A stretch of 64,000 bases of DNA, taken from contig JBBDJR010000006.1 in the NCBI GenBank assembly GCA_040879785.1, positions 64,410 through 128,409 on the forward strand, given 5' to 3'. The notes beneath the pieces were generated by a model. It had not been told where the DNA came from. It searched no databases and was given only the letters and a program-made list of their open reading frames with translations. The position numbers and the translations under genes are program-made. Of this stretch, positions 206 through 62,736 are shown piece by piece; position 1 is the stretch's first letter, and each line of letters starts with the position of its first letter. This DNA is from Candidatus Pacearchaeota archaeon (GTDB lineage: Archaea; Nanobdellota; Nanobdellia; Pacearchaeales; GW2011-AR1).

Positions 206-347
206 GGCTCCGTAGCTCAGCCTGGTCAGAGCACTGGACTCTTATGAATAACTTTCTTTAGAAAAGAAAGTTCTGCGCTCAAAGAAACTAATACAGCGCT
301 TCTCAGGAGATATCCAGGTGTCGAGGGTTCAAATCCCTCCGGGGCCA
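206..347 (+). tRNA. tRNA-Lys (anticodon CUU) with a 67-nt intron at canonical 37/38 (intron 245-311)
   Basis: Hand-folded cloverleaf: acceptor GGCUCCG/CGGGGCC, D arm GCUC..GAGC, anticodon stem CUGGA/UCCAG, loop CUCUUAA after intron removal, T arm GAGGG-UUCAAAU-CCCUC, discriminator A. The intron has two internal hairpins, and GGAG near its 3' end can pair with loop CUCU (BHB-like). Confidence 0.85.
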
Positions 348-6567: not shown

Positions 6568-7782
6568 CTAAAACCACTTCCCAAGCGTCATTTGGGTTTT
6601 CATCTGTTCAAGAAGCCTGCTTTTCTTAACGATCTTTCCTGTGTCAAAACCAAACTTTATCATCCCGATTTTCTTTGCGCTTTCAATAACTTCCGACATT
6701 TCATTAAACTCAAGTTTCCTGTTGTTAAGTGCCTTTCGAACAGATTCACGAACGACCCAAACGCCAAGAGATGCCCAATAACTCGGAAGCTCGAGCCTTA
6801 TCGCAATAACAGAAGCCTGCTTCTTTTCTTTTTCAAGATACTTAAGAATTGGGAGCCTCGTCGCGTAATACCCTCCGGAAGTATTCGAAGCATAACTCTT
6901 CCTTCCCGAAAAACCCTCGTAGTCCGTCGCGGCCTTTATCTCTTTACTCTGATTCCAAGAACTCCCTGGCAAATAAAGCTCAAAAAGCTCATAACTCCAA
7001 ACATTAGGAAACAACATTATCAAATATGCATTTCCCATAAACTCTCCGAAAAACAATTCATAATTTTCAATCCACCGATATCCTCTAATCTTTTCAGCAA
7101 GGTTCTTCCCAATCATATCATCAGTCGCCGTAATCGACCAGCGAGTAGGAACGAGCTTCTTATCCTTTTTGAGACCAAGAACCCCCACACTCAAAATCTT
7201 ACTCAAAGTATACTCATCAAATTTATTTTTATAAAGATACTCAACACCTTCAGAAGCCTTTAAATCATCATTAACAACTTTGTCAAGTTTCCTCTCAACT
7301 TTCACATTCCCAACAACCCTCGCATTTTTCAAAGGAGCAGCCATCCCCTGATGAGATAAAATCCTGTCTTTCTTAGTCCCTGGACCAATCTTATGCCTAA
7401 GCTCAATCTCCATATCAACCGGCTTTGAAGCCAACGCGATTTCCTTTGCTATTCCCAAAAACCTGTTTTTATCTGATGAAGAAGCCGCACTTTTAACGTT
7501 TGACTTAAACCTTGAATTAAGAAGGCTATCTCTAAGACTCATAACATCCCTTATCCTAAAATTATTCTTCGCCCAATACTTCATGTCATCATAAATCCAC
7601 GCACTCTTATCTTTTTCAAGAGGACTTAAAATCCCGACATTAACATTAGGATATTTCAAACCCGAGCCAACAAAAACACTCGGAGGCGAATTCGTATCAA
7701 GCTCGGAAACCCTGTCCAGATTTTTATACTTAAAATTCACATCTGCTATTTTCTTAATCACTTCAAACCTTATGTCTTTCAT
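6568..7782 (-). CDS. nreA: NreA-like archaeal DNA-repair protein (DUF650/DUF651 type) with a C-terminal PIP-box-like motif
   Basis: N-terminal PPSVFVGSGLKYPNVNVGIL signature. The C-terminus QMTLGKWF fits QxxLxx[FW][FW]. Confidence 0.6.
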   Translation of the reverse strand: MKDIRFEVIKKIADVNFKYKNLDRVSELDTNSPPSVFVGSGLKYPNVNVGILSPLEKDKSAWIYDDMKYWAKNNFRIRDVMSLRDSLLNSRFKSNVKSAASSSDKNRFLGIAKEIALASKPVDMEIELRHKIGPGTKKDRILSHQGMAAPLKNARVVGNVKVERKLDKVVNDDLKASEGVEYLYKNKFDEYTLSKILSVGVLGLKKDKKLVPTRWSITATDDMIGKNLAEKIRGYRWIENYELFFGEFMGNAYLIMLFPNVWSYELFELYLPGSSWNQSKEIKAATDYEGFSGRKSYASNTSGGYYATRLPILKYLEKEKKQASVIAIRLELPSYWASLGVWVVRESVRKALNNRKLEFNEMSEVIESAKKIGMIKFGFDTGKIVKKSRLLEQMKTQMTLGKWF

Positions 7783-7864
7783 GATAGAAAAAAGAAGTTT
7801 TGATTTATATTCTTTAAGAATTACTCAGGAGTTGCTTAGAATCAATTATATAAAATAAAACAGG

Positions 7865-8545
7865 CTAGATTAGAGAGAAGAATTCTTTCTTCTTTCTTTT
7901 GAATGAAGCATAAATATCAGAATTAATAAACTCCTCTCTAAAGATAAGTCTTCGGTAAGAGTTAATGATTCCACTATCGTTTGAGATTAAAGCAGTTTTT
8001 CCTCTAAAAAAACTCAAAATACCTCCTTTAATCAATAAGTCATAATCCGGAAAACTCAACCCGTTGTCAGACATCAAATCCAAATTCCTACGATACATCT
8101 CCTCATGAAATCCCTTTTCATTCTCTTTAATACCCATAATCCTTTTTTGTTTTTTAAGAAGAGAGGTTAACTTTCGGGCTTCTTTTTGACTAGATAAAAA
8201 TCTTCCGTAAAGTTCTCTTTCTTTTTCAGGAACTCCATTAGAATAACCTCTCCCAACTAAACCTCTTGGTTCCCTAGAATTCTCATCATTCCCAGGCCTT
8301 AACTCATTAAGAATCTCCTTTGTTGAGCATAGCTCTCTATAACGCTTAAGGTTTTTTCTAAAAAATACTATGGAGTCTGTTTGAGTGTTATGGGTTTCTA
8401 TCTTTCCTTTCAATCCAGAATAATTTCCATTTGAGTCCAAGTAACTGATCAAAGCACAGGTATCAAGTAAAACAATATCAAAACTTTCACAAATTTCATC
8501 AAGACTCTTAATCTCTCCGTTTCCAACACCCTTCTGCATTCCCAA
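7865..8545 (-). CDS. PIN-like nuclease domain protein with a large insertion (paralog of 59374..60060)
   Basis: FDIVLLDTCALISYL (first Asp), STKEILNEL, PDYDLL, and TALISNDSGII (last acidic motif). Confidence 0.5.
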   Translation of the reverse strand: MGMQKGVGNGEIKSLDEICESFDIVLLDTCALISYLDSNGNYSGLKGKIETHNTQTDSIVFFRKNLKRYRELCSTKEILNELRPGNDENSREPRGLVGRGYSNGVPEKERELYGRFLSSQKEARKLTSLLKKQKRIMGIKENEKGFHEEMYRRNLDLMSDNGLSFPDYDLLIKGGILSFFRGKTALISNDSGIINSYRRLIFREEFINSDIYASFKRKKKEFFSLI

Positions 8546-8618
8546 CCCAAGAAATGAAGATTAAAAAGTTTTTATCTACTCTAGTGTTATATCCAACCTT
8601 TCCTAAAAACTCCTTAAT

Positions 8619-8637
8619 TTGACCACACTTGGGCGAA
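8619..8637 (+). repeat. REP-like hairpin copy 4 (TTGACCA-CACT-TGGGCGAA)
   Basis: Near-identical to the tRNA-Ile leader copy at 30395. Lies between radB and the PIN-like gene. Confidence 0.6.
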
Positions 8638-8652
8638 TTAGTGGCATATTTC

Positions 8653-9399
8653 TTACAACCATCCTTTACGAAATACGCCCTCGTTCCTTATCTCAAAACT
8701 CATTTCCTTCACCGGCAGACTCCTATGCTTAAGAAGAATCGCTTTTCTTTTCCCTGAATCGTTCTTCAATTCAATTATTGTTTTACTCCAATACTTAAAC
8801 AAATCCCCTCCGACTATATTCGATTCAGGCTTCACTCCTTTTTTCCATTCCTCCTCGGACAAAAACCCGTGATAAACCTGGTTTGTTATCATAACAGGAA
8901 GATTCTCTTTTCTAGAAATTTCCGAAAGAATTCTCATTTGTTTAGCAACCTCTCTGTTAATTTCTCTGACCTTACTATCATCTCTAGATTTCTGAGCGTC
9001 TCCGAGTTCAAGTCGGTAAAGCATCGCCATCCCGTCAACAACAATCATCCCAACATTTTCTTTTTTAACTCTGTTAAGAAGATTCGCAAAAATCTTTTTC
9101 TGCTCGTCAAAGTTCGTCGGATTCAATAAAAGAATATTCTCAAGAATTTTTTCATGACCATCTCCAACTATTTGTTTAACCCTTTCAGAGCTAAATCCTC
9201 CTTCAGTATCTATAAAAATAACCTTGCTATCTCTCTTAGCCTGACCGCACGCAGCCAGAAGAACAAAGTTCGTCTTTCCTGAAGCCGGAGGGCCCGCAAT
9301 CATACTTATCACACTTTTTTCGTATCCTCCGTAAAGCCATTTATTCAAATCAAAACTTCCCGCAGATATTTTATTGTCTGACATTTTACAAATAACCAT
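8653..9399 (-). CDS. radB: RadB-type RecA/RadA paralog ATPase
   Basis: Walker A GPPASGKTN, Walker B MIVVDG, and a size (248 aa) typical of RadB. Confidence 0.75.
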   Translation of the reverse strand: MVICKMSDNKISAGSFDLNKWLYGGYEKSVISMIAGPPASGKTNFVLLAACGQAKRDSKVIFIDTEGGFSSERVKQIVGDGHEKILENILLLNPTNFDEQKKIFANLLNRVKKENVGMIVVDGMAMLYRLELGDAQKSRDDSKVREINREVAKQMRILSEISRKENLPVMITNQVYHGFLSEEEWKKGVKPESNIVGGDLFKYWSKTIIELKNDSGKRKAILLKHRSLPVKEMSFEIRNEGVFRKGWL

Positions 9400-9811: not shown

Positions 9812-10075
9812 CTACTTCATTCCAGAAAAATCTTTATCCGTCTTTTCAAGCTCCTTAATACTTGAAGCAATCGCGTCTTTTATCGCCTTCTTTGGAGTCT
9901 TGCCTTTAGTCTTAACATTAACTATTGGTTTCTCGGAAGGGTGCTCTCTTTTCCAGGCAGCAAAACTAACGCTTGAATCCTTGTTCAAGAAAACCCTCAA
10001 AAGTTCCGCAATAGTAACATTATCAACGTGAAATTCCAACTCGTCCTTTGAACTCTTTAAAACTTTGATTTCCAT
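9812..10075 (-). CDS. rpoL: DNA-directed RNA polymerase subunit L (Rpo11)
   Basis: 87 aa. The profile MEIKVLKSSKDELEFHVDNVTIAELLR...FAAWKREHP is typical of Rpo11. Confidence 0.75.
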   Translation of the reverse strand: MEIKVLKSSKDELEFHVDNVTIAELLRVFLNKDSSVSFAAWKREHPSEKPIVNVKTKGKTPKKAIKDAIASSIKELEKTDKDFSGMK

Positions 10076-10279
10076 AATAACTAAGAACCAATTTGATTTA
10101 AAAAGATTGCTATTTTTGTGGGCTTTGTTCAGAAAGTAGATTTTTACTCCAACTCATTAAACAGAAATATACTGCTCGCTCCGCTCGCAGATTACCGAAA
10201 CAACCAACACATCAAATAAAAAACAAACACGGATTCATGGTTAACATGGACCGGGAGGGCGGAACTAATTAAACAAGAC

Positions 10280-11071
10280 CTATTTTTCACTTTCCTCTTC
10301 TGACTCGCTTTCACCAAACACTTCCTTAAAATCTTCCTCAGAATCTTTATCTAAATCTTCTTCATCCTCTGCAACCTTTCCTGATTTCTTTTTTCCCTCT
10401 TTCGCTTCCTTCATTCTTTTCAGGTCGTCAATAGTCAAATTCTTCATCATCTCAGGGTCAAACTTTATCACCCTGGCCGCCCGTTTTTCCTTACCAGCTT
10501 CTCCAACCCCTGGCATTTTTCCTCTGGCTTCATCTTTAACAATTTTAATTCCTAGAAAACTTTCAATCTTCCCAATAATCCTGTAATCATCCTCAGGAAG
10601 AACCCCTCTCTCCGCCATTTTAATTGCAGAAACCGATTCAGAAATCTCTTTTGCAAGCTGCTCGGGAGTCATCTTTTTCGCTCTCCTCGCCCTCATAATA
10701 ACCCAATGGAAATTATCCACAAGATCTTTTCTTGGTTCTTCTTTAGGACTTTTTCCAGAACTCTGGGAAATCCTTCCTTCATAATTTTTCTCAACAATAT
10801 CTTTCAACTCCTTATCTTTTCTGTCCTTTTCCCAATAGGATCCCGACTTTCCAGAACCTGATTCTTTACTCGCCGGACGCCTGTAAATCCTATGCTCCTT
10901 TTCAGATTCTTTAAGCTGAAACGTAGTCGGCCTCCTCAAAACAGGGATTCCTTCTTTTCTTGCACAAGAATCACACACCTTAACAACGCCCTTCTCTTTA
11001 AATGAAACCGCGTCTAAAAGCCTTACCTCACTTCCCGAAACGCCACAAACGGAACACTTGTCATAATCCAT
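10280..11071 (-). CDS. MBF1-like zinc-ribbon + Cro/C1 HTH protein with an acidic tail
   Basis: N-terminal CSVCG...CDSC ribbon, the HTH MTPEQLAKEISESVSAIKMAERG, and an E/D-rich C-terminus. Confidence 0.55.
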   Translation of the reverse strand: MDYDKCSVCGVSGSEVRLLDAVSFKEKGVVKVCDSCARKEGIPVLRRPTTFQLKESEKEHRIYRRPASKESGSGKSGSYWEKDRKDKELKDIVEKNYEGRISQSSGKSPKEEPRKDLVDNFHWVIMRARRAKKMTPEQLAKEISESVSAIKMAERGVLPEDDYRIIGKIESFLGIKIVKDEARGKMPGVGEAGKEKRAARVIKFDPEMMKNLTIDDLKRMKEAKEGKKKSGKVAEDEEDLDKDSEEDFKEVFGESESEEESEK

Positions 11072-54600: not shown

Positions 54601-55071
54601 TTAAACCTCTCTCCTTATTTTTTCTGCGAGTTTTCTTAGGTTTTCATCATCTTCTCTTTTATAGTCATGTGAAGAGATATATCCCTCGTATCTCTCAAAA
54701 TATTTATTCACATTTGATTTAATCTCTTTCCATTTTTCCATATCTGAAGTGTTGTGCATTGGGAAAAGCTTTGCATGAACGTGGTCTACTCCAAATCCTT
54801 CAAAAATCATCCCAGTCCTTCCAACGTCTTTTAGTTTAGAGTCTATTAATTTGGCAACTTTTTTAGAGGCAATAACTAACTCGGAAAGGATTTCGTCAGA
54901 TAAATTAAAAGCATAACTCGAAAAATGTTCTTTTGTTATCACGACCGAAAAACCTTCTGTATTTGGAAAAGGGGAGAGAAACGCCAAATGCTTTTTATCT
55001 TCCCATATTTTATGGCAAGGAGCATCTCCTTTCACGATTTTACAAAAAATACAATCTTTTTTCATCACCAT
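54601..55071 (-). CDS. HIT-family nucleotide hydrolase/transferase (degenerate triad HVHAK)
   Basis: DCIFCKIVKGDAPCHKIWEDKKHLAFL and GVDHVHAKLFP. Confidence 0.7.
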   Translation of the reverse strand: MVMKKDCIFCKIVKGDAPCHKIWEDKKHLAFLSPFPNTEGFSVVITKEHFSSYAFNLSDEILSELVIASKKVAKLIDSKLKDVGRTGMIFEGFGVDHVHAKLFPMHNTSDMEKWKEIKSNVNKYFERYEGYISSHDYKREDDENLRKLAEKIRREV

Positions 55072-55316
55072 CCTCCCTTCTCTCCAAGAATAAAATCTTC
55101 ACTTTTCTTAGGGGCGTTATCAAACATTATATCCCGGGAAAAATCTCTTTTTTCATTTCCCTCCTGCCTTTCGGATTCCTCTCTCTCAACATGAGAATCT
55201 TCAAGCTTTCCCTTAACTTTACCAAGCTTTTTTGAAAAAGAATCCAAAATAGATTTCGCTTCTTTCTTTATATCTTCCTTCTCTTTTTCAGAAACTTTGT
55301 GCCATAAAAAATCCAT
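55065..55316 (-). CDS. gatC: GatC-like amidotransferase subunit C (divergent)
   Basis: 83 aa with a C-terminal FDNAPKKSEDFILG resembling the GatC NAP...F motif. Sits between aspS and the gatA block. Confidence 0.45.
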   Translation of the reverse strand: MDFLWHKVSEKEKEDIKKEAKSILDSFSKKLGKVKGKLEDSHVEREESERQEGNEKRDFSRDIMFDNAPKKSEDFILGEKGGW

Positions 55317-55346: not shown

Positions 55347-56729
55347 TTACTTCTTCTTTTTCTTCCCGTCTTTAACCACAGAAATATGAACGTCCTTAAG
55401 TTGTTTGGCAGAAACTTCCGACGGAGCGTCAAGCATCATATCCTTTGCCTCTTTGTTCTTTGGGAAAGCAATAACTTCCCTTATGGAATTTTCATCAGCC
55501 ATTATCTGAACGAGTCTGTCAAAACCAAACGCAATCCCTCCGTGAGGCGGAGCTCCAAAATTAAGAGCATTCATCAAAAACCCAAATTTCTCCTCGGCTT
55601 CCTTCTTTGATATTTTCAAAACATCAAAAACCTGACTCTGAATCTCGGAATCATGAATTCTTATACTTCCTCCTGCAATCTCCGAACCGTTTAAAACCAA
55701 ATCATACGCAAGCGACGAAGCATCTCCCTTCTTCTTTTTGAACTCTTCCATGTTTGGCATCGTAAACGGATGATGGGTCGATTTATACCTCTTCTCCTCT
55801 TCGCTGTACTCCATTAAAGGAAAATCAACTACCCAACAAAAAGCAAATTTGTCATCGGCCTTCCTTAAATCAGGCCTGTCAGAGCCGTACTTCTCAATCG
55901 CATCCTTGTATTTTATCCTCTTGAAAGGCGTCTTCACATCAACATTAAGAACTTTCTTAAAAACATACTTCATCATTCTTTCTATTAACTCAATTATGTC
56001 CTCTTGCTCAATAAAAGACATCTCAATATCAATCTGTGTGAACTCCGGTTGCCGGTCCGCCCTCAAATCCTCGTCTCTAAAACATCTCGCAATTTGTAAA
56101 TACTTATCAAACCCTGCAACCTGCGAAAGCTGTTTGAACAACTGCGGAGATTGAGGCAAAGCATAAAACTTCCCTGGAGAATTTCTGCTCGGAACAATAT
56201 AATCTCTTGCACCTTCCGGCGTCGACTTAGCCATAATCGGAGTCTCCACCTCAACAAAATCCTCTTGATAAAAAAAGTCACGGACAGCCTTCAAAGTATC
56301 ACTTCTCAAAATTATATTCTTCTTCATTCTCTCACTTCTCAAATCAAGGAAACGGTACTTCAACCGAGTATCTTCATTAACTTCTTTGTCATTAATATTA
56401 AAAGGGATAACCGGCGCCTTGTTAAAAATCTCCAGGCCCTCTATTGAAACCTCCACATCGCCCGTAGAAAGCTCCTTGTTTTCTGTGCCCTTAGGACGCG
56501 CCTTGACCTCTCCTTTAATTAAAATGCTAGACTCAACAGTCAAACTTTTTATTGAATCAAAATTAGAATTCTTTTTTGGAGCAACAGCCTGGATTCTTCC
56601 GTACCTGTCTCTTAAATCAATAAAAACAACATTCCCGTGGTCACGGACAGTCTCAACCCATCCTGCCAGAGAAACCTTTTTACCGACGAGGTCCTTGTTC
56701 ACTTCGCTTATCTTGTGTGTTCTTAACAT
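55347..56729 (-). CDS. aspS: Aspartyl-tRNA synthetase, bacterial-type core apparently lacking the GAD insertion
   Basis: FIDLRDRYG, QSPQLFKQ, FRDEDLRADRQPEFTQIDIE and GGIAFGFDRL. Only about 7 aa separate DRPDLR and FCWVVDFP. Confidence 0.9.
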   Translation of the reverse strand: MLRTHKISEVNKDLVGKKVSLAGWVETVRDHGNVVFIDLRDRYGRIQAVAPKKNSNFDSIKSLTVESSILIKGEVKARPKGTENKELSTGDVEVSIEGLEIFNKAPVIPFNINDKEVNEDTRLKYRFLDLRSERMKKNIILRSDTLKAVRDFFYQEDFVEVETPIMAKSTPEGARDYIVPSRNSPGKFYALPQSPQLFKQLSQVAGFDKYLQIARCFRDEDLRADRQPEFTQIDIEMSFIEQEDIIELIERMMKYVFKKVLNVDVKTPFKRIKYKDAIEKYGSDRPDLRKADDKFAFCWVVDFPLMEYSEEEKRYKSTHHPFTMPNMEEFKKKKGDASSLAYDLVLNGSEIAGGSIRIHDSEIQSQVFDVLKISKKEAEEKFGFLMNALNFGAPPHGGIAFGFDRLVQIMADENSIREVIAFPKNKEAKDMMLDAPSEVSAKQLKDVHISVVKDGKKKKK

Positions 56730-56737
56730 ATTAACAT

Positions 56738-58225
56738 CTATTTAACATACTTTTTAATAATTTCCATAGCCTTTTTCCCTTCAACCTTTCCCTTAAACTC
56801 CTTCATCACCAAACCCATATAAGCCTTTGGAGAAAGCCCTGGTTTTTTCTTGATAATATTTAGTATCTTTTCCTCAACAACAGAAGAATCCTCCCTCTCA
56901 AAACTAACAGCCTCCCTGTAATCTTCTCCTTTGACAATTCTTTCTAAAACATGTTTAACTTCTGATTCCGAAATTTTCCCTTTTTTCAAACTCTCAAGAA
57001 CATGCGAAAGAACATCTTTATTAAGAATTTCCTCAACTTCCTTCAAAGACTTTTTCTCTCTGCTTGAAATCTCTTTTGGAAAAACAAGAAGAACCTTCCC
57101 AATAAGATTCGGCTTATTCAAAACAGAAAGAAGCTCCTTAAATTCCTCGACGCTTCCCTCTTTCAAAAGAAGAGAAATCATTTCTTTATTCAACCCTTCC
57201 CTCTTAAGCTCATCTCTTTCTTCTGTTTTTAATTTAGGCAGCGTCTTCTTGGCTTTGTTAATAAAATCACGGGAAATTTTCAAAAGAGGTAGGTCCGTCT
57301 CAGGATACATTCTTGAAGCTCCGGGCAGCGGCCTCAGATACTTTGTTGTATTGTCCGGCTCTGCCCCTCTTACTTCCGGCTTAAGTTCTTTTAATTTTCC
57401 TTTTTCAAGATTTTTTAACTGTCTCTTTACTTCTTCTTCAACAACCTGAACAAAAACTCTCGGATTCTGAAATCCCTTAATCTCTGCCCGCGGATGCCCT
57501 TTTATACTTACATTAATGTCCTGTCTTATTGTTCCAATCCCTCGACGAACCTTACACGCTCTCAAAATTTCCCCAATATGCAAGGCAGTTTCTTTTGCCT
57601 GCTCTGGAGTTTTTATGTCCGGCCCTGTAACAATCTCAACGAGAGGAATCCCGAGACGGTCCAGCCTGTAAACAACCCTGTTGCCTTTCTCATCTTCGGA
57701 AACTTTCCTCGCTGCATCTTCCTCAAGATAAACATACTTAATTCCAATCTTCCCGTGAGGCGTCTCAACAAACCCATCGCGGGCAACCAAAACACTCCTT
57801 TGAAAACCGCTTGTATTACTCCCGTCAATAACCGTCTTCCTCATTATCTGAGTTAAAGGAACCATCTGGCAATTCAAAAGCAAAGAAATATGAGTCGCAA
57901 CTTTCAAGGCCTCTTCATCAATTTCGTGCGGAGGCTCCTCATCCAACTCCACAAGACAAGTAGTATCTTTATAACCCTGATAGACAAACTCCTTCTCTAA
58001 AGATTTTTGGAACAAAGCAGCAACATCAACCTCTCCTGATTCCCCGGGAACCGCATGAAGTTTCCTCTTAACAACAAAATCCGGCTCATCCCTCCTCAAA
58101 ACAGAAGGACAATTGCAAAAAAGCTTTCCTGTATCAAGTTGTTGATGAATTTCCAAACCACACTTAAGTCCCAATTTACTATAATCTAATTCCTTCCCAA
58201 ATTCTTTTTTTTGTTTCTCGGACAT
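56738..58225 (-). CDS. gatE: Glu-tRNA(Gln) amidotransferase subunit E (short form)
   Basis: GLKCGLEIHQQLDTGKLFCNCPS, TCLVELDEEPP and VIDGSNTSGFQRS. Confidence 0.85.
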   Translation of the reverse strand: MSEKQKKEFGKELDYSKLGLKCGLEIHQQLDTGKLFCNCPSVLRRDEPDFVVKRKLHAVPGESGEVDVAALFQKSLEKEFVYQGYKDTTCLVELDEEPPHEIDEEALKVATHISLLLNCQMVPLTQIMRKTVIDGSNTSGFQRSVLVARDGFVETPHGKIGIKYVYLEEDAARKVSEDEKGNRVVYRLDRLGIPLVEIVTGPDIKTPEQAKETALHIGEILRACKVRRGIGTIRQDINVSIKGHPRAEIKGFQNPRVFVQVVEEEVKRQLKNLEKGKLKELKPEVRGAEPDNTTKYLRPLPGASRMYPETDLPLLKISRDFINKAKKTLPKLKTEERDELKREGLNKEMISLLLKEGSVEEFKELLSVLNKPNLIGKVLLVFPKEISSREKKSLKEVEEILNKDVLSHVLESLKKGKISESEVKHVLERIVKGEDYREAVSFEREDSSVVEEKILNIIKKKPGLSPKAYMGLVMKEFKGKVEGKKAMEIIKKYVK

Positions 58226-58265
58226 GAATAGAATAAATAAAAAGAGTTTATTAAATTAATCTTAA

Positions 58266-58565
58266 TTAATCTCTTAACAATTTATGTATCAAATCTTTAG
58301 GCAATGTGGGCACGTCCTCGGACCGAACCGCTCTACTGATAGCTTCCTCATTTTCAATATAAGAATCCCTAAATCTCTCCGCTTGTTTTGATTTAACCCA
58401 ATCCACCAATGCCTCATCCCAACCAACGTCCAGTTCTTTTATTTCAGACAGATAATATTTATGTTCCTCAATCTCTCTGATTTGCAACGCCATATAAAGT
58501 TTCAGATTTTTAACATCTGATTTTTGGCCCGATCCCCTCTTTTGATGATATATTAGTTTTGGCAT
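58266..58565 (-). CDS. 99-aa helical protein with an HKYYLSE motif (DUF4032-like, tentative)
   Basis: IEEHKYYLSEIKELDVGWDEALVDWV. Third gene of the cassette between gatD and gatE. Confidence 0.35.
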   Translation of the reverse strand: MPKLIYHQKRGSGQKSDVKNLKLYMALQIREIEEHKYYLSEIKELDVGWDEALVDWVKSKQAERFRDSYIENEEAISRAVRSEDVPTLPKDLIHKLLRD

Positions 58566-58576
58566 TTTGTTTAATA

Positions 58577-59371
58577 TTATTGGTCATACTTCTTCATGAC
58601 CTTCTTTATAGAATCGCTTATCTCAGCTAGAGAAATATTCATTCTACCACTTCTTAATAATTCTTCATAAACATTAAGTGTTAAGTCTTCTGGAATTTCT
58701 TCGGTCTTATTGGAAGAAGTTAGTTCTCCAGAACCTCTTAAGCTCAACATTGTTTTACTTATCTCATCCATAAGATCTTTTTTTGAAGATTTAAGACTTG
58801 TTCTCCAAAGTTTAGCAAATTTTTGATTATCATAATCCTTAACTACAACCCCCTCTCTTCCATAATTAGAATACTTACTTTCCCAAAGAGCTAATTTTTT
58901 AACGTCTCCAATCTCCAGCTTTCCCTCCGCAAGAGGTTCTAAAAAAAGAATCTTTTCTATTCCAGAATCGTTTAAGATCTCTCGTGAACTAGAGTAGGGA
59001 ATAAACCGATCTTCAGAGATTTTATAAAGATCAATTAAAAAGAATTTATTTGTAAATTCTGGTTTATAATTGATAGTATGAGGAGACATGAATTCCCCAT
59101 AAACAACAAAATCTTCAGAAAGATTATAAAGAGTGTAGTTTGATTTTGCCCAATTATTAAAATCTTTAAACCAATTAAATCTAAAATACTCTTCTCTTGT
59201 TAGAAAGTTTGCCCTGCTTCCTGTCAAAATCTGACCATTTAACACCCTAATCTGAGAATTACCTCCATCTAATTTCTCAAATACCTGTAACCTATCACTC
59301 TCCAAAATTTCTGGCACTTCTGTAAGATGAGGTATTGAAGGATATTTTATAAAATCTGTGTCTTGAACCAT
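58577..59371 (-). CDS. ATP-dependent RNA-ligase-like nucleotidyltransferase (KxDG family)
   Basis: KYPSIPHL; motif I EKLDGGN (Lys33); motif III VVYGEFM; motif IV FFLIDLY; motif V REGVVVKDYDNQKFAKL. Confidence 0.6.
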   Translation of the reverse strand: MVQDTDFIKYPSIPHLTEVPEILESDRLQVFEKLDGGNSQIRVLNGQILTGSRANFLTREEYFRFNWFKDFNNWAKSNYTLYNLSEDFVVYGEFMSPHTINYKPEFTNKFFLIDLYKISEDRFIPYSSSREILNDSGIEKILFLEPLAEGKLEIGDVKKLALWESKYSNYGREGVVVKDYDNQKFAKLWRTSLKSSKKDLMDEISKTMLSLRGSGELTSSNKTEEIPEDLTLNVYEELLRSGRMNISLAEISDSIKKVMKKYDQ

Positions 59372-59373
59372 TT

Positions 59374-60060
59374 TTATCTCCTCCTTGTTGAAATAGGAAC
59401 GATGTTTGAATACCTATCCTTAAAATTTTTCTTCAAAAACTCCGAACCTAAGATAATATGATCATCTGAAGATAAAACAAGTAGGTTCTCCCTCCCTTCT
59501 TCAGAAGAGTCTCCAACATTACAGTTACTTAAATACGCAACTGTTGATAATATTTCCTTATCTGTTTCTGAACAGCCCTCAACATACTTTTTACTGTTCC
59601 CATTACAACCCTCCTTAGATGCCCAATAAGCATCATATCTAGCCTGATCTGGCTCAAGACCACACTCTAATCCAGAAATATATTCCTCGGATCCAATCAT
59701 TATCTCTAAAGAACGGTCAACAATTCTAGGGGTTAGCTCCTGAGTATGTCCATTGAGTTTCATTCTTCCATGGTCTTGTATTTCCTGATAAGTCTTAGGG
59801 GTAATTATTATTCCTACGTTCTCAGAGATATAATCTAAAAAAGATGTTGCTCTCATATAATTTGGGTTAACATCCTTTCCTCTAGAAACAAGATTATACT
59901 CACGAGCCTTATTTGCAATCTCAATCAGACCTCCTGTATCCAAAACAAGAAGAGAGTTATCACTAGACCTATTATTTATTTCTTTATCTAACTCATCTAA
60001 GTTTTTAATGCACATAAAAGATACATGGTCCCCACACTTAAAAACCTTTCTCCTTGTCAC
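59374..60060 (-). CDS. PIN-like nuclease domain protein (paralog of 7865..8545)
   Basis: LLVLDTGGLIE, TYQEIQDH, SETDKEIL and LLVLSSDDHII acidic set. Confidence 0.5.
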   Translation of the reverse strand: MTRRKVFKCGDHVSFMCIKNLDELDKEINNRSSDNSLLVLDTGGLIEIANKAREYNLVSRGKDVNPNYMRATSFLDYISENVGIIITPKTYQEIQDHGRMKLNGHTQELTPRIVDRSLEIMIGSEEYISGLECGLEPDQARYDAYWASKEGCNGNSKKYVEGCSETDKEILSTVAYLSNCNVGDSSEEGRENLLVLSSDDHIILGSEFLKKNFKDRYSNIVPISTRRR

Positions 60061-60087
60061 CCCTTTTTAATTATAACATTCTAACAA

Positions 60088-61374
60088 TCATTTATCAAGC
60101 CTGTCGTTAAACTCACCTGCGATGTTCTCAAGCATTTTTTCTCTGACTTTTTCCTTGTTTTTTGCCCAGTCATTATGGCCCAAAACCCATCCGAGTTTTA
60201 CTAAAGCAGTCTCAGCAAGCATATCTCTCAAATAGATAACACCTGTTTCCATAATTTCTCTCCCGTTAGAATAAACAAATGGGTCCAGCCTGCCGTTTAT
60301 AGTTTGGGCTGCGGCACAAACAATGAGCCCTTTTTTCTGAACTTCTTTAAGTTTTTTTATCCATGATTTTTTAGAATCTCTTCCCGGAACATGACCCAAA
60401 CCAGTGACCTCCAGAACAATTCCTTTGTATTTCTTCTTCACATAATAATCCAAAATCTCAGAATCCTGCCCGGGATAAACCTTAACAAGAGCAACCTTTT
60501 CTTCAAACTTCGCATCAACTTTAACTTTTTTCTTACTATCCCTAAAATTATGTTCAGAGATTTTTTCTATTCTATCAGGAAAGATTTTGGCGAAAGGTTC
60601 CGAATTAATTATTTTAAAGGCATCTCTCCTCGAGGTGTGCATCTTTTTAACTTTAGTTCCGGGCATTGCATAACAATAATCATCGTTCGTCGTCGCATGT
60701 CCGACCAACATGACCTCTGCAATATCTGAGATGGCTGCAAGAGCAGAGCACTGCAAATTCAAATTCGCATCAGACGAAGCACGGTCAACACTTCTCTGGC
60801 TGTAAGTCAAAACAACCGGTTTTCCCAAATTCCTCATAAAAAAACTCAAAGCCGCAGAAGTATAATGCAATGTATCCGTCCCGTGAGTAATTATCACTCC
60901 TTTAATATTTGAATCATTCAAAAGCTTTTCAGCCGTGCGGGCAATTCTTTTCCAGTCCTTAAAATCCATACTCTCGGACGATTTCATAAAGGGAACCTCG
61001 ACTTTAGAAATATTAACCTTACCAAAAATCTCAGGATAAAACCTAAACAAATCATCCGGGCTTGTTAAAGGCGAAACCCCTCCTGTCTTTGAATCATAAC
61101 GCGAAGCAATCGTTCCTCCCGTTAGAATCATTCCGACGTTCGGCTTCTCCTTGTCCGTCTTTATCTCATGAACCTCTTCCCTGCCTTCCGCCTTCTTCAA
61201 AACATTAACCTCTAAAACATCTTTTTTACTAAATCCTATGTTATAACCCGAGTCAAGTTTAAGCAAGATTATTCCTTTATCTGAATCGGGAGACTTCAAC
61301 AATCGACCTTCATAAGATTTCTTAACAAGAGAAACCTCCACATAATCTCCAGGAGATGCTTTTCCGTTCACCAT
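60088..61374 (-). CDS. gatD: Glu-tRNA(Gln) amidotransferase subunit D (asparaginase-like)
   Basis: ILTGGTIAS and THGTDT motifs. Start set at the ATG at 61374. Confidence 0.9.
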   Translation of the reverse strand: MVNGKASPGDYVEVSLVKKSYEGRLLKSPDSDKGIILLKLDSGYNIGFSKKDVLEVNVLKKAEGREEVHEIKTDKEKPNVGMILTGGTIASRYDSKTGGVSPLTSPDDLFRFYPEIFGKVNISKVEVPFMKSSESMDFKDWKRIARTAEKLLNDSNIKGVIITHGTDTLHYTSAALSFFMRNLGKPVVLTYSQRSVDRASSDANLNLQCSALAAISDIAEVMLVGHATTNDDYCYAMPGTKVKKMHTSRRDAFKIINSEPFAKIFPDRIEKISEHNFRDSKKKVKVDAKFEEKVALVKVYPGQDSEILDYYVKKKYKGIVLEVTGLGHVPGRDSKKSWIKKLKEVQKKGLIVCAAAQTINGRLDPFVYSNGREIMETGVIYLRDMLAETALVKLGWVLGHNDWAKNKEKVREKMLENIAGEFNDRLDK

Positions 61375-61413
61375 GAAAGAAACACACAACAAGCATATAA
61401 AAAGTTATTGAGG

Positions 61414-62602: not shown

Positions 62603-62736
62603 TGGGCCTGCCAGGACTCGAACCTGGATCAACGGGGTATTCCGAAGCCCGCTCGCATTATGACAAAACGAAAAAGCTTGTCTCCCGCAAACTTCCTCAC
62701 CGAAACCCGTCATTCTGTCCATTGAACTACAGACCC
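62603..62736 (-). tRNA. tRNA-Arg (anticodon UCG) with a 62-nt intron after position 37
   Basis: Reverse complement folds as GGGUCUG-UA-GUUC-AAUGGACA-GAAU-G-ACGGG-UUUCGG[intron]C-CCCGU-UGAU-CCAGG-UUCGAGU-CCUGG-CAGGCCC-A. Confidence 0.8.

Follow-up and report, generated by a model that had tools for sequence, protein, structure and literature searches.

A conserved gene pair for a PIN-like nuclease and a compact RNA ligase in DPANN archaea: a candidate cut-and-seal RNA module

In a stretch of 64,000 nucleotides (nt) from the genome of a Candidatus Pacearchaeota archaeon (contig JBBDJR010000006.1, positions 64,410 to 128,409; hereafter, the window), three small genes are lodged between gatD and gatE, two of them coding for a PIN-like protein and for what appears to be a compact ATP-dependent RNA ligase. 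These two genes form a pair that persists across deep divergence within the DPANN archaea, and the predicted catalytic residues of both products are conserved. We propose that the pair is a two-enzyme housekeeping module of Nanoarchaeota, Pacearchaeota and Woesearchaeota that cuts and seals RNA, a reading to which we assign a probability of about 55%. An earlier note on this DNA had singled out the nuclease and the ligase as a unit within the gatD/gatE cluster, and the comparison of related loci bears out this part of it.

The case for the pair is, above all, comparative. Searches by ligase similarity, followed down to 24-28% identity, gathered 77 distinct ligase loci, and the presence of the PIN-like gene was scored only in the 56 of these that offer at least 650 nt upstream of the ligase; in 53 of the 56, the PIN-like gene is located directly upstream. 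The two genes overlap or lie no more than 18 nt apart in every locus with gene calls, an overlap of stop and start codons between them recurs across loci, and no inserted gene separates them in any inspected locus. The adjacency extends to PIN-like family members of about 20% identity (P0147, P0130 and P0219), each followed, with an overlap or a gap of at most 2 nt, by a ligase of the PF09414 family. With regard to phyletic spread, a scan of GTDB species genomes by close alignment yielded 9 loci, all in metagenome-assembled genomes of Nanoarchaeota, Pacearchaeota or Woesearchaeota, and tblastn recovered the same gene order in these loci except for L018, where the contig is just 1.2 kb long and confined to the PIN-like gene and the ligase; a metagenome scan by ligase alignment added 80 further loci, down to 28% identity. 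Several ligase relatives come without an upstream PIN-like gene (L087 888-1472, L091 223-798, L067 4968-5819 and L101 893-1756), and two of these, those of L087 and L091, are short (192-195 amino acids, aa) and devoid of the C-terminal helical module described below; in L099, both genes are apparently shortened, to 150 and 176 aa.

The pair typically resides in the gat cluster. Of 57 distinct loci, 44 have gatE after the ligase, at no more than 150 nt from it in 39 cases; of the 28 distinct loci with enough upstream sequence, 21 carry gatD ahead of the pair and on its strand. Nine homologue loci display a constant order of PIN-like gene, ligase and a short gatE, with gatD upstream, at times beyond an inserted gene (Nramp, DUF1003, DUF2391 or guanylate cyclase). 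Indeed, the junctions between gatD and the PIN-like gene and between the ligase and gatE harbor, in different lineages, inserted genes that are unrelated to each other. The order gatD, PIN-like gene, ligase is kept without gatE in the distant loci L110 and L111, and the most divergent pairs (L084 and L093) are embedded in ribosomal-protein clusters with no gat genes nearby. The neighbors of the pair are genes for translation or RNA metabolism, namely gatD, gatE, aminoacyl-tRNA synthetases, ribosomal proteins, eIF-1A, EndA and EndoV. Across loci, the divergence of the pair parallels that of gatD and gatE; in tracking the neighboring housekeeping genes in this manner, the pair shows the pattern expected of vertical inheritance. 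In L110, an Endonuclease V gene (PF04493; 8534-9232, plus strand) directly follows the ligase, in the usual place of gatE, and in L111, a gene for the tRNA-splicing endonuclease EndA (10008-10520, plus strand) lies 1.5 kb downstream.

In the window, the pair and the genes around it are arranged as follows:

60088-61392, minus strand: gatD, the 5' flank of the pair (NF003217, E 8e-135, above the cut-off)
59374-60060, minus strand: putative PIN-like metallonuclease ("X"), longest open reading frame (ORF), 228 aa from a GTG at 60060
59374-60015, minus strand: the same PIN-like protein in its homologue-supported form, 213 aa from an ATG at 60015
58577-59371, minus strand: predicted compact ATP-dependent RNA ligase, 264 aa (PF09414 match)
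58266-58565, minus strand: orphan ORF of 99 aa between the ligase and gatE, outside the conserved module
56738-58225, minus strand: gatE, 495 aa, a short version (two-part match to NF003107, E 1.5e-149)

All five ORFs are on the minus strand between 56.7 and 61.4 kb, at the coordinates stated in the earlier note, and the gaps of 27, 2, 11 and 40 nt from gatD to gatE (with the 228-aa start) and all the motifs that the earlier note quoted (LDT, QEI, ETD and SDD in the PIN-like protein; KLDG, GEF, IDL, EGVVVK...K and KYPSIPHL in the ligase; HKYYLSE in the 99-aa ORF) are present in the sequence. Both gat genes score above the respective NCBIfam equivalog thresholds (gatD with 449.6 bits against 310, gatE with 499.3 against 456). 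The start of the PIN-like gene is another matter: all 35 homologues begin at the position of the ATG at 60015, which corresponds to M16 of the longer ORF; a length of 213 aa is therefore the most probable one, and it widens the gap to gatD to 72 nt. An AT-rich, TATA-like stretch is located ahead of this ATG (60016-60087, minus strand), and another one, together with a T5 run, occupies the space before gatE, after the 99-aa ORF (58226-58265, minus strand); internal promoters are thus possible, and co-transcription of the pair with gatD and gatE is unproven.

So what are the two proteins? The PIN-like protein belongs to a close family of 36 sequences (the window protein and its 35 homologues) and to a wider family, for which a profile search of 1.84 billion representatives recovered 147 clusters (50% identity) with members of 200-250 aa that align over the full length. 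Among 138 sequences of this family, D26 and E78 are invariant whereas H82, E93, S149, D152, D184 and H186 are each conserved in at least 90%. Thus, the acidic set that the earlier note saw in the PIN-like protein, D26/E78/D152/D184, is conserved. The AlphaFold2 model of the protein, with a predicted local distance difference test score (pLDDT) of 90.5, is a four-stranded alpha/beta fold in which strands alternate with helices, with a helical insertion that spans roughly residues 96-146. In this model, D26 is placed after strand 1 and D184 after strand 3, E78 is part of the third core helix and D152 opens a helix, a predicted placement that is the canonical PIN arrangement. A Foldseek search with the model returned weak, recurrent PIN-like matches (the PIN domain of SMG6, Exo1, a Medusavirus PIN protein and XRN), and the matches to GMP and NAD synthetases that also appeared were dismissed as generic Rossmann-like similarity. 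A Pfam scan of the 138 members points in the same direction, with PIN_4 detected in 18 (best E 7.8e-5), PIN_12 in 17 (best E 4e-4), and a small number of members matching PIN_6, PIN, PIN_8, NYN or PIN_2. For the protein of the window, neither Pfam nor NCBIfam yields a match, and no family cut-off of either database is reached by the PIN-like protein; sequence and profile searches against the PDB gave chance matches only (NblA, MCM, designed proteins), and the family profile has none there at E up to 10. We accept the 213-aa protein as PIN-like and as the representative of a separate, unannotated family. One oddity of the wider search is the 1338-aa protein P0198, which matches positions 119-152 of the PIN-like profile 19 times; these repeats could represent an RYDxYW-like helical motif or a low-complexity artefact.

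The 264-aa protein matches PF09414 (RNA_ligase) with an E value of 5.9e-17 (62.8 bits against a cut-off of 27) and, by sequence, the Rnl3 enzyme Pab1020 (2vug; E 5.9e-5, the alignment beginning at Pab1020 residue 88). In 28 sequences of the family, K33, R53, E93, D114, E173, G174, K178 and K187 are invariant; these residues make up the nucleotidyltransferase motifs I, Ia, III, IIIa, IV and V, with K33 in the KxDGxN motif. With the model (pLDDT 87.9) as a query, Foldseek placed Rnl3 enzymes on top (8uch at 7e-10, 2vug, 5d1o and the Aquifex protein 3qwu), followed by Rnl5, T4 Rnl2, Rnl1 and Trl1; ranks 1-39 are all RNA ligases, with DNA ligases setting in at rank 40 (E 1.6e-5). The complete motif set combined with these structural neighbors identifies the protein as an RNA ligase. 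On sequence and model, the protein is predicted to be an ATP-dependent RNA ligase with an Rnl3-like core, as the earlier note had held, rather than a DNA ligase or a capping enzyme, and judging by the invariant residues it looks catalytically competent. It is nevertheless not an Rnl3. The match to TIGR01209 (E 3.4e-10, 39.2 bits) falls below the cut-off of 136.9, the N-terminal domain of Rnl3 is missing (264 aa against about 380 aa for Rnl3), and PF18330 (the dimerization domain Lig_C) was not found in the protein, compared to an E value of 6e-42 for a haloarchaeal Rnl3 control; in place of Lig_C, the C-terminus consists of a conserved three-helix module of about 75 aa. Membership in Rnl3 was rejected on these grounds.

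The third gene is of a different kind. A search of 5.8 billion proteins with the 99-aa ORF returned only the ORF itself, about 100 related loci contain no counterpart of it, and the genes that other lineages carry between the ligase and gatE bear no relation to it; the single family match, to DUF4032, is weak and covers 30 residues (E 0.0013). In codon usage, the ORF resembles coding sequence, and it does so in its own frame only. Given the absence of homologues, the module is a pair and not a trio: the co-occurrence that the earlier note envisaged for all three genes holds for the PIN-like gene and the ligase (the 53 of 56 loci above), whereas the 99-aa ORF is a lineage-specific orphan insertion and no third component.

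The window encodes one more candidate member of the PIN-like family, far away from the pair:

7865-8545, minus strand: remote PIN-like paralogue, 226 aa, recognized by profile comparison

The earlier note had called this gene a paralogue that stands alone, which is correct in that no ligase adjoins it and that it appears, from profile comparison, to be a remote homologue of the PIN-like family, but not in the sense of any plain sequence similarity: BLASTP against the PIN-like protein found none (E 0.12). It is hhalign that aligns it to the family profile (probability 94.5%, E 7e-8, 166 columns), with its D, E, SxxD and SxD motifs matched to those of the family, and hmmsearch with the PIN-like profile detects it at E 6.5e-5. 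The gene is flanked by those for archaeal Nre (PF04894/PF04895) and for a RadB/Rad51-like ATPase (region 6568-9399, minus strand).

How could the two enzymes work together? PIN-like metallonucleases produce 5'-phosphate and 3'-hydroxyl (5'-P/3'-OH) ends, which are the ends that ATP-dependent ligases require. Under the scenario that we favor, the PIN-like protein and the ligase would be made together, in the window probably from one transcript that runs into gatE, and might also interact physically. The PIN-like protein would be a metal-dependent endonuclease with D26/E78/D152/D184 as its active site and with the helical insertion probably involved in RNA binding or oligomerization; by analogy with other PIN-like nucleases, its cleavage would leave 5'-phosphate and 3'-hydroxyl ends. 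The ligase, having adenylylated itself on K33, could then seal such ends without the help of a healing enzyme. The nuclease and the ligase would thus act in succession on a stable RNA, in trimming and circularization, in excision and rejoining, or in repair, and tRNA, rRNA and a small guide RNA of the translation apparatus are the candidate substrates suggested by the gene context. The logic of such a pair can be likened to that of HARP (PIN_5) and Rnl3, with the parts taken from another PIN-like family and from a stripped-down ligase. HARP is a protein-only RNase P, and 89% of the HARP-positive genomes are reported to encode Rnl3 as well, often with the two genes adjacent (PMC12153264, Seshadri and Gopalan 2025).

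Several observations weigh against this scenario. The assignment of the PIN fold is built on many weak matches, the best Pfam E value being 8e-5, and a Foldseek search of the PDB and BFVD with the model returned nothing with E below 0.06. Because the paralogue at 7865-8545 has DNA-repair genes as neighbors, the activity of the family may extend beyond RNA. The analogy, too, is only as good as its model, in that the joint function of HARP and Rnl3 is still a hypothesis and a Thermococcus Rnl3 knockout has no growth defect (PMC12153264). Finally, generic RNA processing leaves the tight link to gatD and gatE unaccounted for.

Downstream of gatE, the cluster continues:

55347-56729, minus strand: bacterial-type aspS, 460 aa (NF001750, E 4e-208)
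55065-55316, minus strand: gatC-like ORF, 83 aa (TIGR01827, E 7e-9, below the cut-off)
54601-55071: HIT-family gene, its start overlapped by the gatC-like ORF

The GatE of the window, 495 aa long against a model of 630 positions, lacks the middle of the model (roughly 265-400, the AspRS-like insertion domain), and GatE proteins of related loci are similarly short (472-496 aa). The AspRS model is likewise matched in two stretches and the protein has only 460 aa, so the GAD insertion domain is apparently missing from it. In most related loci, one or two genes for class IIb aminoacyl-tRNA synthetases follow gatE; two is the number in most relatives and one in the window. A homologue of the gatC-like ORF also follows aspS in L007, and no gatA or gatB was noted near the ORF in the window. 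Rfam matches identify two tRNA genes, at 206-347 (plus strand) and 62603-62736 (minus strand), of 142 and 134 nt; each covers the whole of a 71-nt model, and because these spans exceed the model length, both genes probably contain introns. The second tRNA gene, which immediately precedes the permease-gatD cluster, is in part called as tRNA-Asp(GTC) by ARAGORN. Directly upstream of gatD, several relatives carry free-standing ORFs of 248-268 aa with weak Pfam similarity to LAGLIDADG_3:

L004, 3836-4582: LAGLIDADG_3-like ORF
L005, 3836-4582: LAGLIDADG_3-like ORF
L009, 1220-2026: LAGLIDADG_3-like ORF

The unexplained position between gatD and gatE motivates an alternative under which the pair specifically serves those tRNAs on which the neighboring gene products act, through the processing or proofreading of tRNA-Gln, tRNA-Asn or tRNA-Asp, perhaps while docked on GatDE; it could take the form, for example, of a protein-only nuclease that processes the 5' end or the anticodon loop and a ligase that reseals the product. 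The frequencies with which gatE follows the ligase and gatD precedes the pair, the retention of gatD beside the pair where gatE has moved away (L110 and L111), the class II synthetase genes after gatE and the missing insertion domain of the window GatE all speak for this possibility. So does the precedent of PIN_5, which co-occurs with the TIGR01209 ligase, a tRNA methyltransferase and a tRNA synthetase (PMC5499597, Matelska et al. 2017) and, as HARP, cleaves pre-tRNA (PMC5499597). Nevertheless, we consider a dedicated tRNA function unlikely: the most divergent pairs persist in ribosomal-protein clusters without any gat genes, there is no transamidation step known to need the cutting or joining of RNA, and gene order within a single superphylum can be inherited rather than functional. 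A bolder version of the same idea seems to us more doubtful still. Here, the PIN-like protein would be a DPANN-specific protein-only tRNA-processing endonuclease, the third independent one after PRORP and HARP, which together with the ligase matures or reseals the tRNAs of GatDE and the synthetases via a 5'-P/3'-OH route that is independent of EndA and RtcB. Were this the case, such a role would explain why the pair persists between gatD and gatE.

Could the substrate be DNA, or an RNA-DNA hybrid, instead? The pair would then consist of a flap or nick nuclease of the FEN/Exo1 kind and a nick-sealing ligase, involved in repair, ribonucleotide excision or primer removal. The weak fold matches of the PIN-like model do include 5'-nucleases of the Exo1, XRN and T4 RNase H type; the paralogue at 7865-8545 has Nre on one side and a RadB-like gene on the other; in L110, the gene after the ligase codes for EndoV; and the Rnl2- and Rnl5-type relatives of the ligase are nick sealers. 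All this notwithstanding, a role in DNA transactions appears quite improbable, considering that the 39 best structural matches of the ligase are without exception RNA ligases, that the ligase contains neither an OB domain nor a DNA-binding domain, and that the neighbors of the pair itself are translation genes and not genes for replication or repair.

The earlier note had favored yet another interpretation, a self-contained break-and-repair or toxin/repair module analogous to the anticodon nucleases. In such a module, or in a toxin-antitoxin-like one, the PIN nuclease would damage tRNA under stress or infection and the ligase would undo the damage. Around one in five prokaryotic PIN proteins is the toxin of a toxin-antitoxin system (PMC5499597), the two genes of the pair lie side by side in the same direction and frequently overlap, and the toxin-antitoxin idea has been raised for HARP and Rnl3, too (PMC12153264). 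The genomic evidence is, however, hard to reconcile with this view. The pair occupies a fixed place among translation genes, within the gat/translation cluster in most of the 77 loci and in ribosomal-protein clusters where it is most divergent, and its divergence tracks that of the housekeeping genes around it, pointing to vertical inheritance. There are no mobile-element genes among the called neighbors, no flanking repeats beyond the chance level around the locus and no small DNA-binding antitoxin. PADLOC reports no match for any protein of the locus, and in the 2.9 million viral contigs of IMG/VR, the PIN-like protein has no relative and the ligase has just three, all of them distant phage ligases. 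We therefore rejected a toxin/repair or defense module as the principal interpretation and regard it as very unlikely. Least credible of all is the notion that the adjacency merely reflects a gene order frozen by accident in a single lineage, with no functional link behind it, to which all named relatives coming from one superphylum might seem to testify but which clashes with an adjacency seen in 53 of 56 loci and down to about 20% (PIN-like) and about 28% (ligase) identity, with the repeated remodeling of both flanks by unrelated insertions and relocations, and with the recurrence of overlapping stop and start codons.

Thus, the housekeeping cut-and-seal module is the interpretation that we retain, and it can be set against several known systems. 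As far as the nuclease is concerned, the best, though weak, matches in both sequence and fold are the PIN domains of the VapC group (PIN_4, which includes SMG6/EST1A, PIN_12 and Nob1/PIN_6), with which the PIN-like family shares four acidic residues in the canonical order and the alpha/beta/alpha fold; unlike these domains, it possesses the helical insertion of about 60 residues, conserved H82, N88, E93, S149 and H186, and an obligatory ligase partner, and it reaches the cut-off of no VapC-group family. At the level of the design, the anticodon nuclease PrrC with T4 Pnkp/Rnl1 and the bacterial Pnkp-Hen1 system similarly couple a break in RNA to an ATP-dependent RNA ligase. PrrC-type anticodon nucleases leave 2',3'-cyclic phosphate and 5'-OH ends, which require healing by a kinase/phosphatase, and no gene for an end-healing kinase or phosphatase was found among the called neighbors of the pair. 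Moreover, those systems are conflict modules that reside on phages and mobile islands, in contrast to the housekeeping pair described here. The archaeal EndA endonuclease with RtcB is also a cut-and-join pair that acts on stable RNAs, but the folds are unrelated to those of the present pair and the end chemistry would be the opposite one: EndA and RtcB work through cyclic phosphate and 5'-OH ends, and RtcB is GTP-dependent.

The closest parallel is HARP with Rnl3, a ligase type (PF09414 with PF18330) to which Pab1020 and MthRnl belong. The surveys that established this linkage define it by PIN_5 and TIGR01209/PF18330, the NCBI name of the PIN_5 protein being "RNA ligase partner protein" (TIGR03875), and we recovered three HARP genes beside Rnl3 genes on haloarchaeal plasmids. 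The earlier note did not recognize its gene combination as a described system; the combination of a PIN nuclease with an Rnl3-type ligase is, in fact, curated as TIGR03875/PIN_5/HARP (PMC5499597, PMC12153264), and given that the pairing of PIN_5 with a TIGR01209-type ligase is on record, the nuclease-ligase design as such is already described. Is the pair in the window, then, simply a DPANN version of HARP and Rnl3? In both cases, an Rnl3-like ligase encoded in an archaeal genome has as its neighbor a PIN protein of some 200-230 aa whose four-stranded sheet is accompanied by an additional helical element (in HARP, two inserted helices; PMC8266387), the surroundings consist of tRNA or translation genes, and the end chemistry, by analogy, would suit direct sealing. 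The family resemblance stops there. The window protein and two relatives show no match to PF08745 or TIGR03875, compared to E values of 1e-73 and 1.7e-71 for positive controls from haloarchaeal plasmids, and PF08745 is not among the Pfam families listed for the 138 PIN-like members. A comparison by hhalign with a HARP profile (seven sequences, from the haloarchaeal plasmid genes and PDB alignments) gives a probability of 48% and an E value of 1.9e-4 over 55 N-terminal columns only, and the top 50 Foldseek matches of the PIN-like model do not include any HARP structure. With no family match and no full-length similarity in profile or fold, membership of the PIN-like protein in HARP was rejected. 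The two systems differ also in the acidic set, which is the canonical D-E-D-D here and D7/D138/D142/D161 in HARP; in gene arrangement, tandem and overlapping here, usually divergent in HARP and Rnl3; and in distribution, the pair being found in DPANN, from all of which HARP has been reported absent (PMC6380272).

What is new, accordingly, is the combination of a different PIN-like family with a minimal ligase, in DPANN. The finding supplies a name and a testable function for about 150 clusters of "hypothetical proteins" and adds a new minimal class of RNA ligases, and it brings up an unexplained tie between a nuclease-ligase pair and tRNA-dependent amidation. Beyond that, the occurrence of the pair throughout DPANN shows that the partnership of a PIN-type nuclease with an RNA ligase is a recurrent and strongly selected design that reaches beyond the extremophile euryarchaea, and the DPANN pair offers a second, simpler system in which the purpose of the linkage typified by HARP and Rnl3 can be probed.

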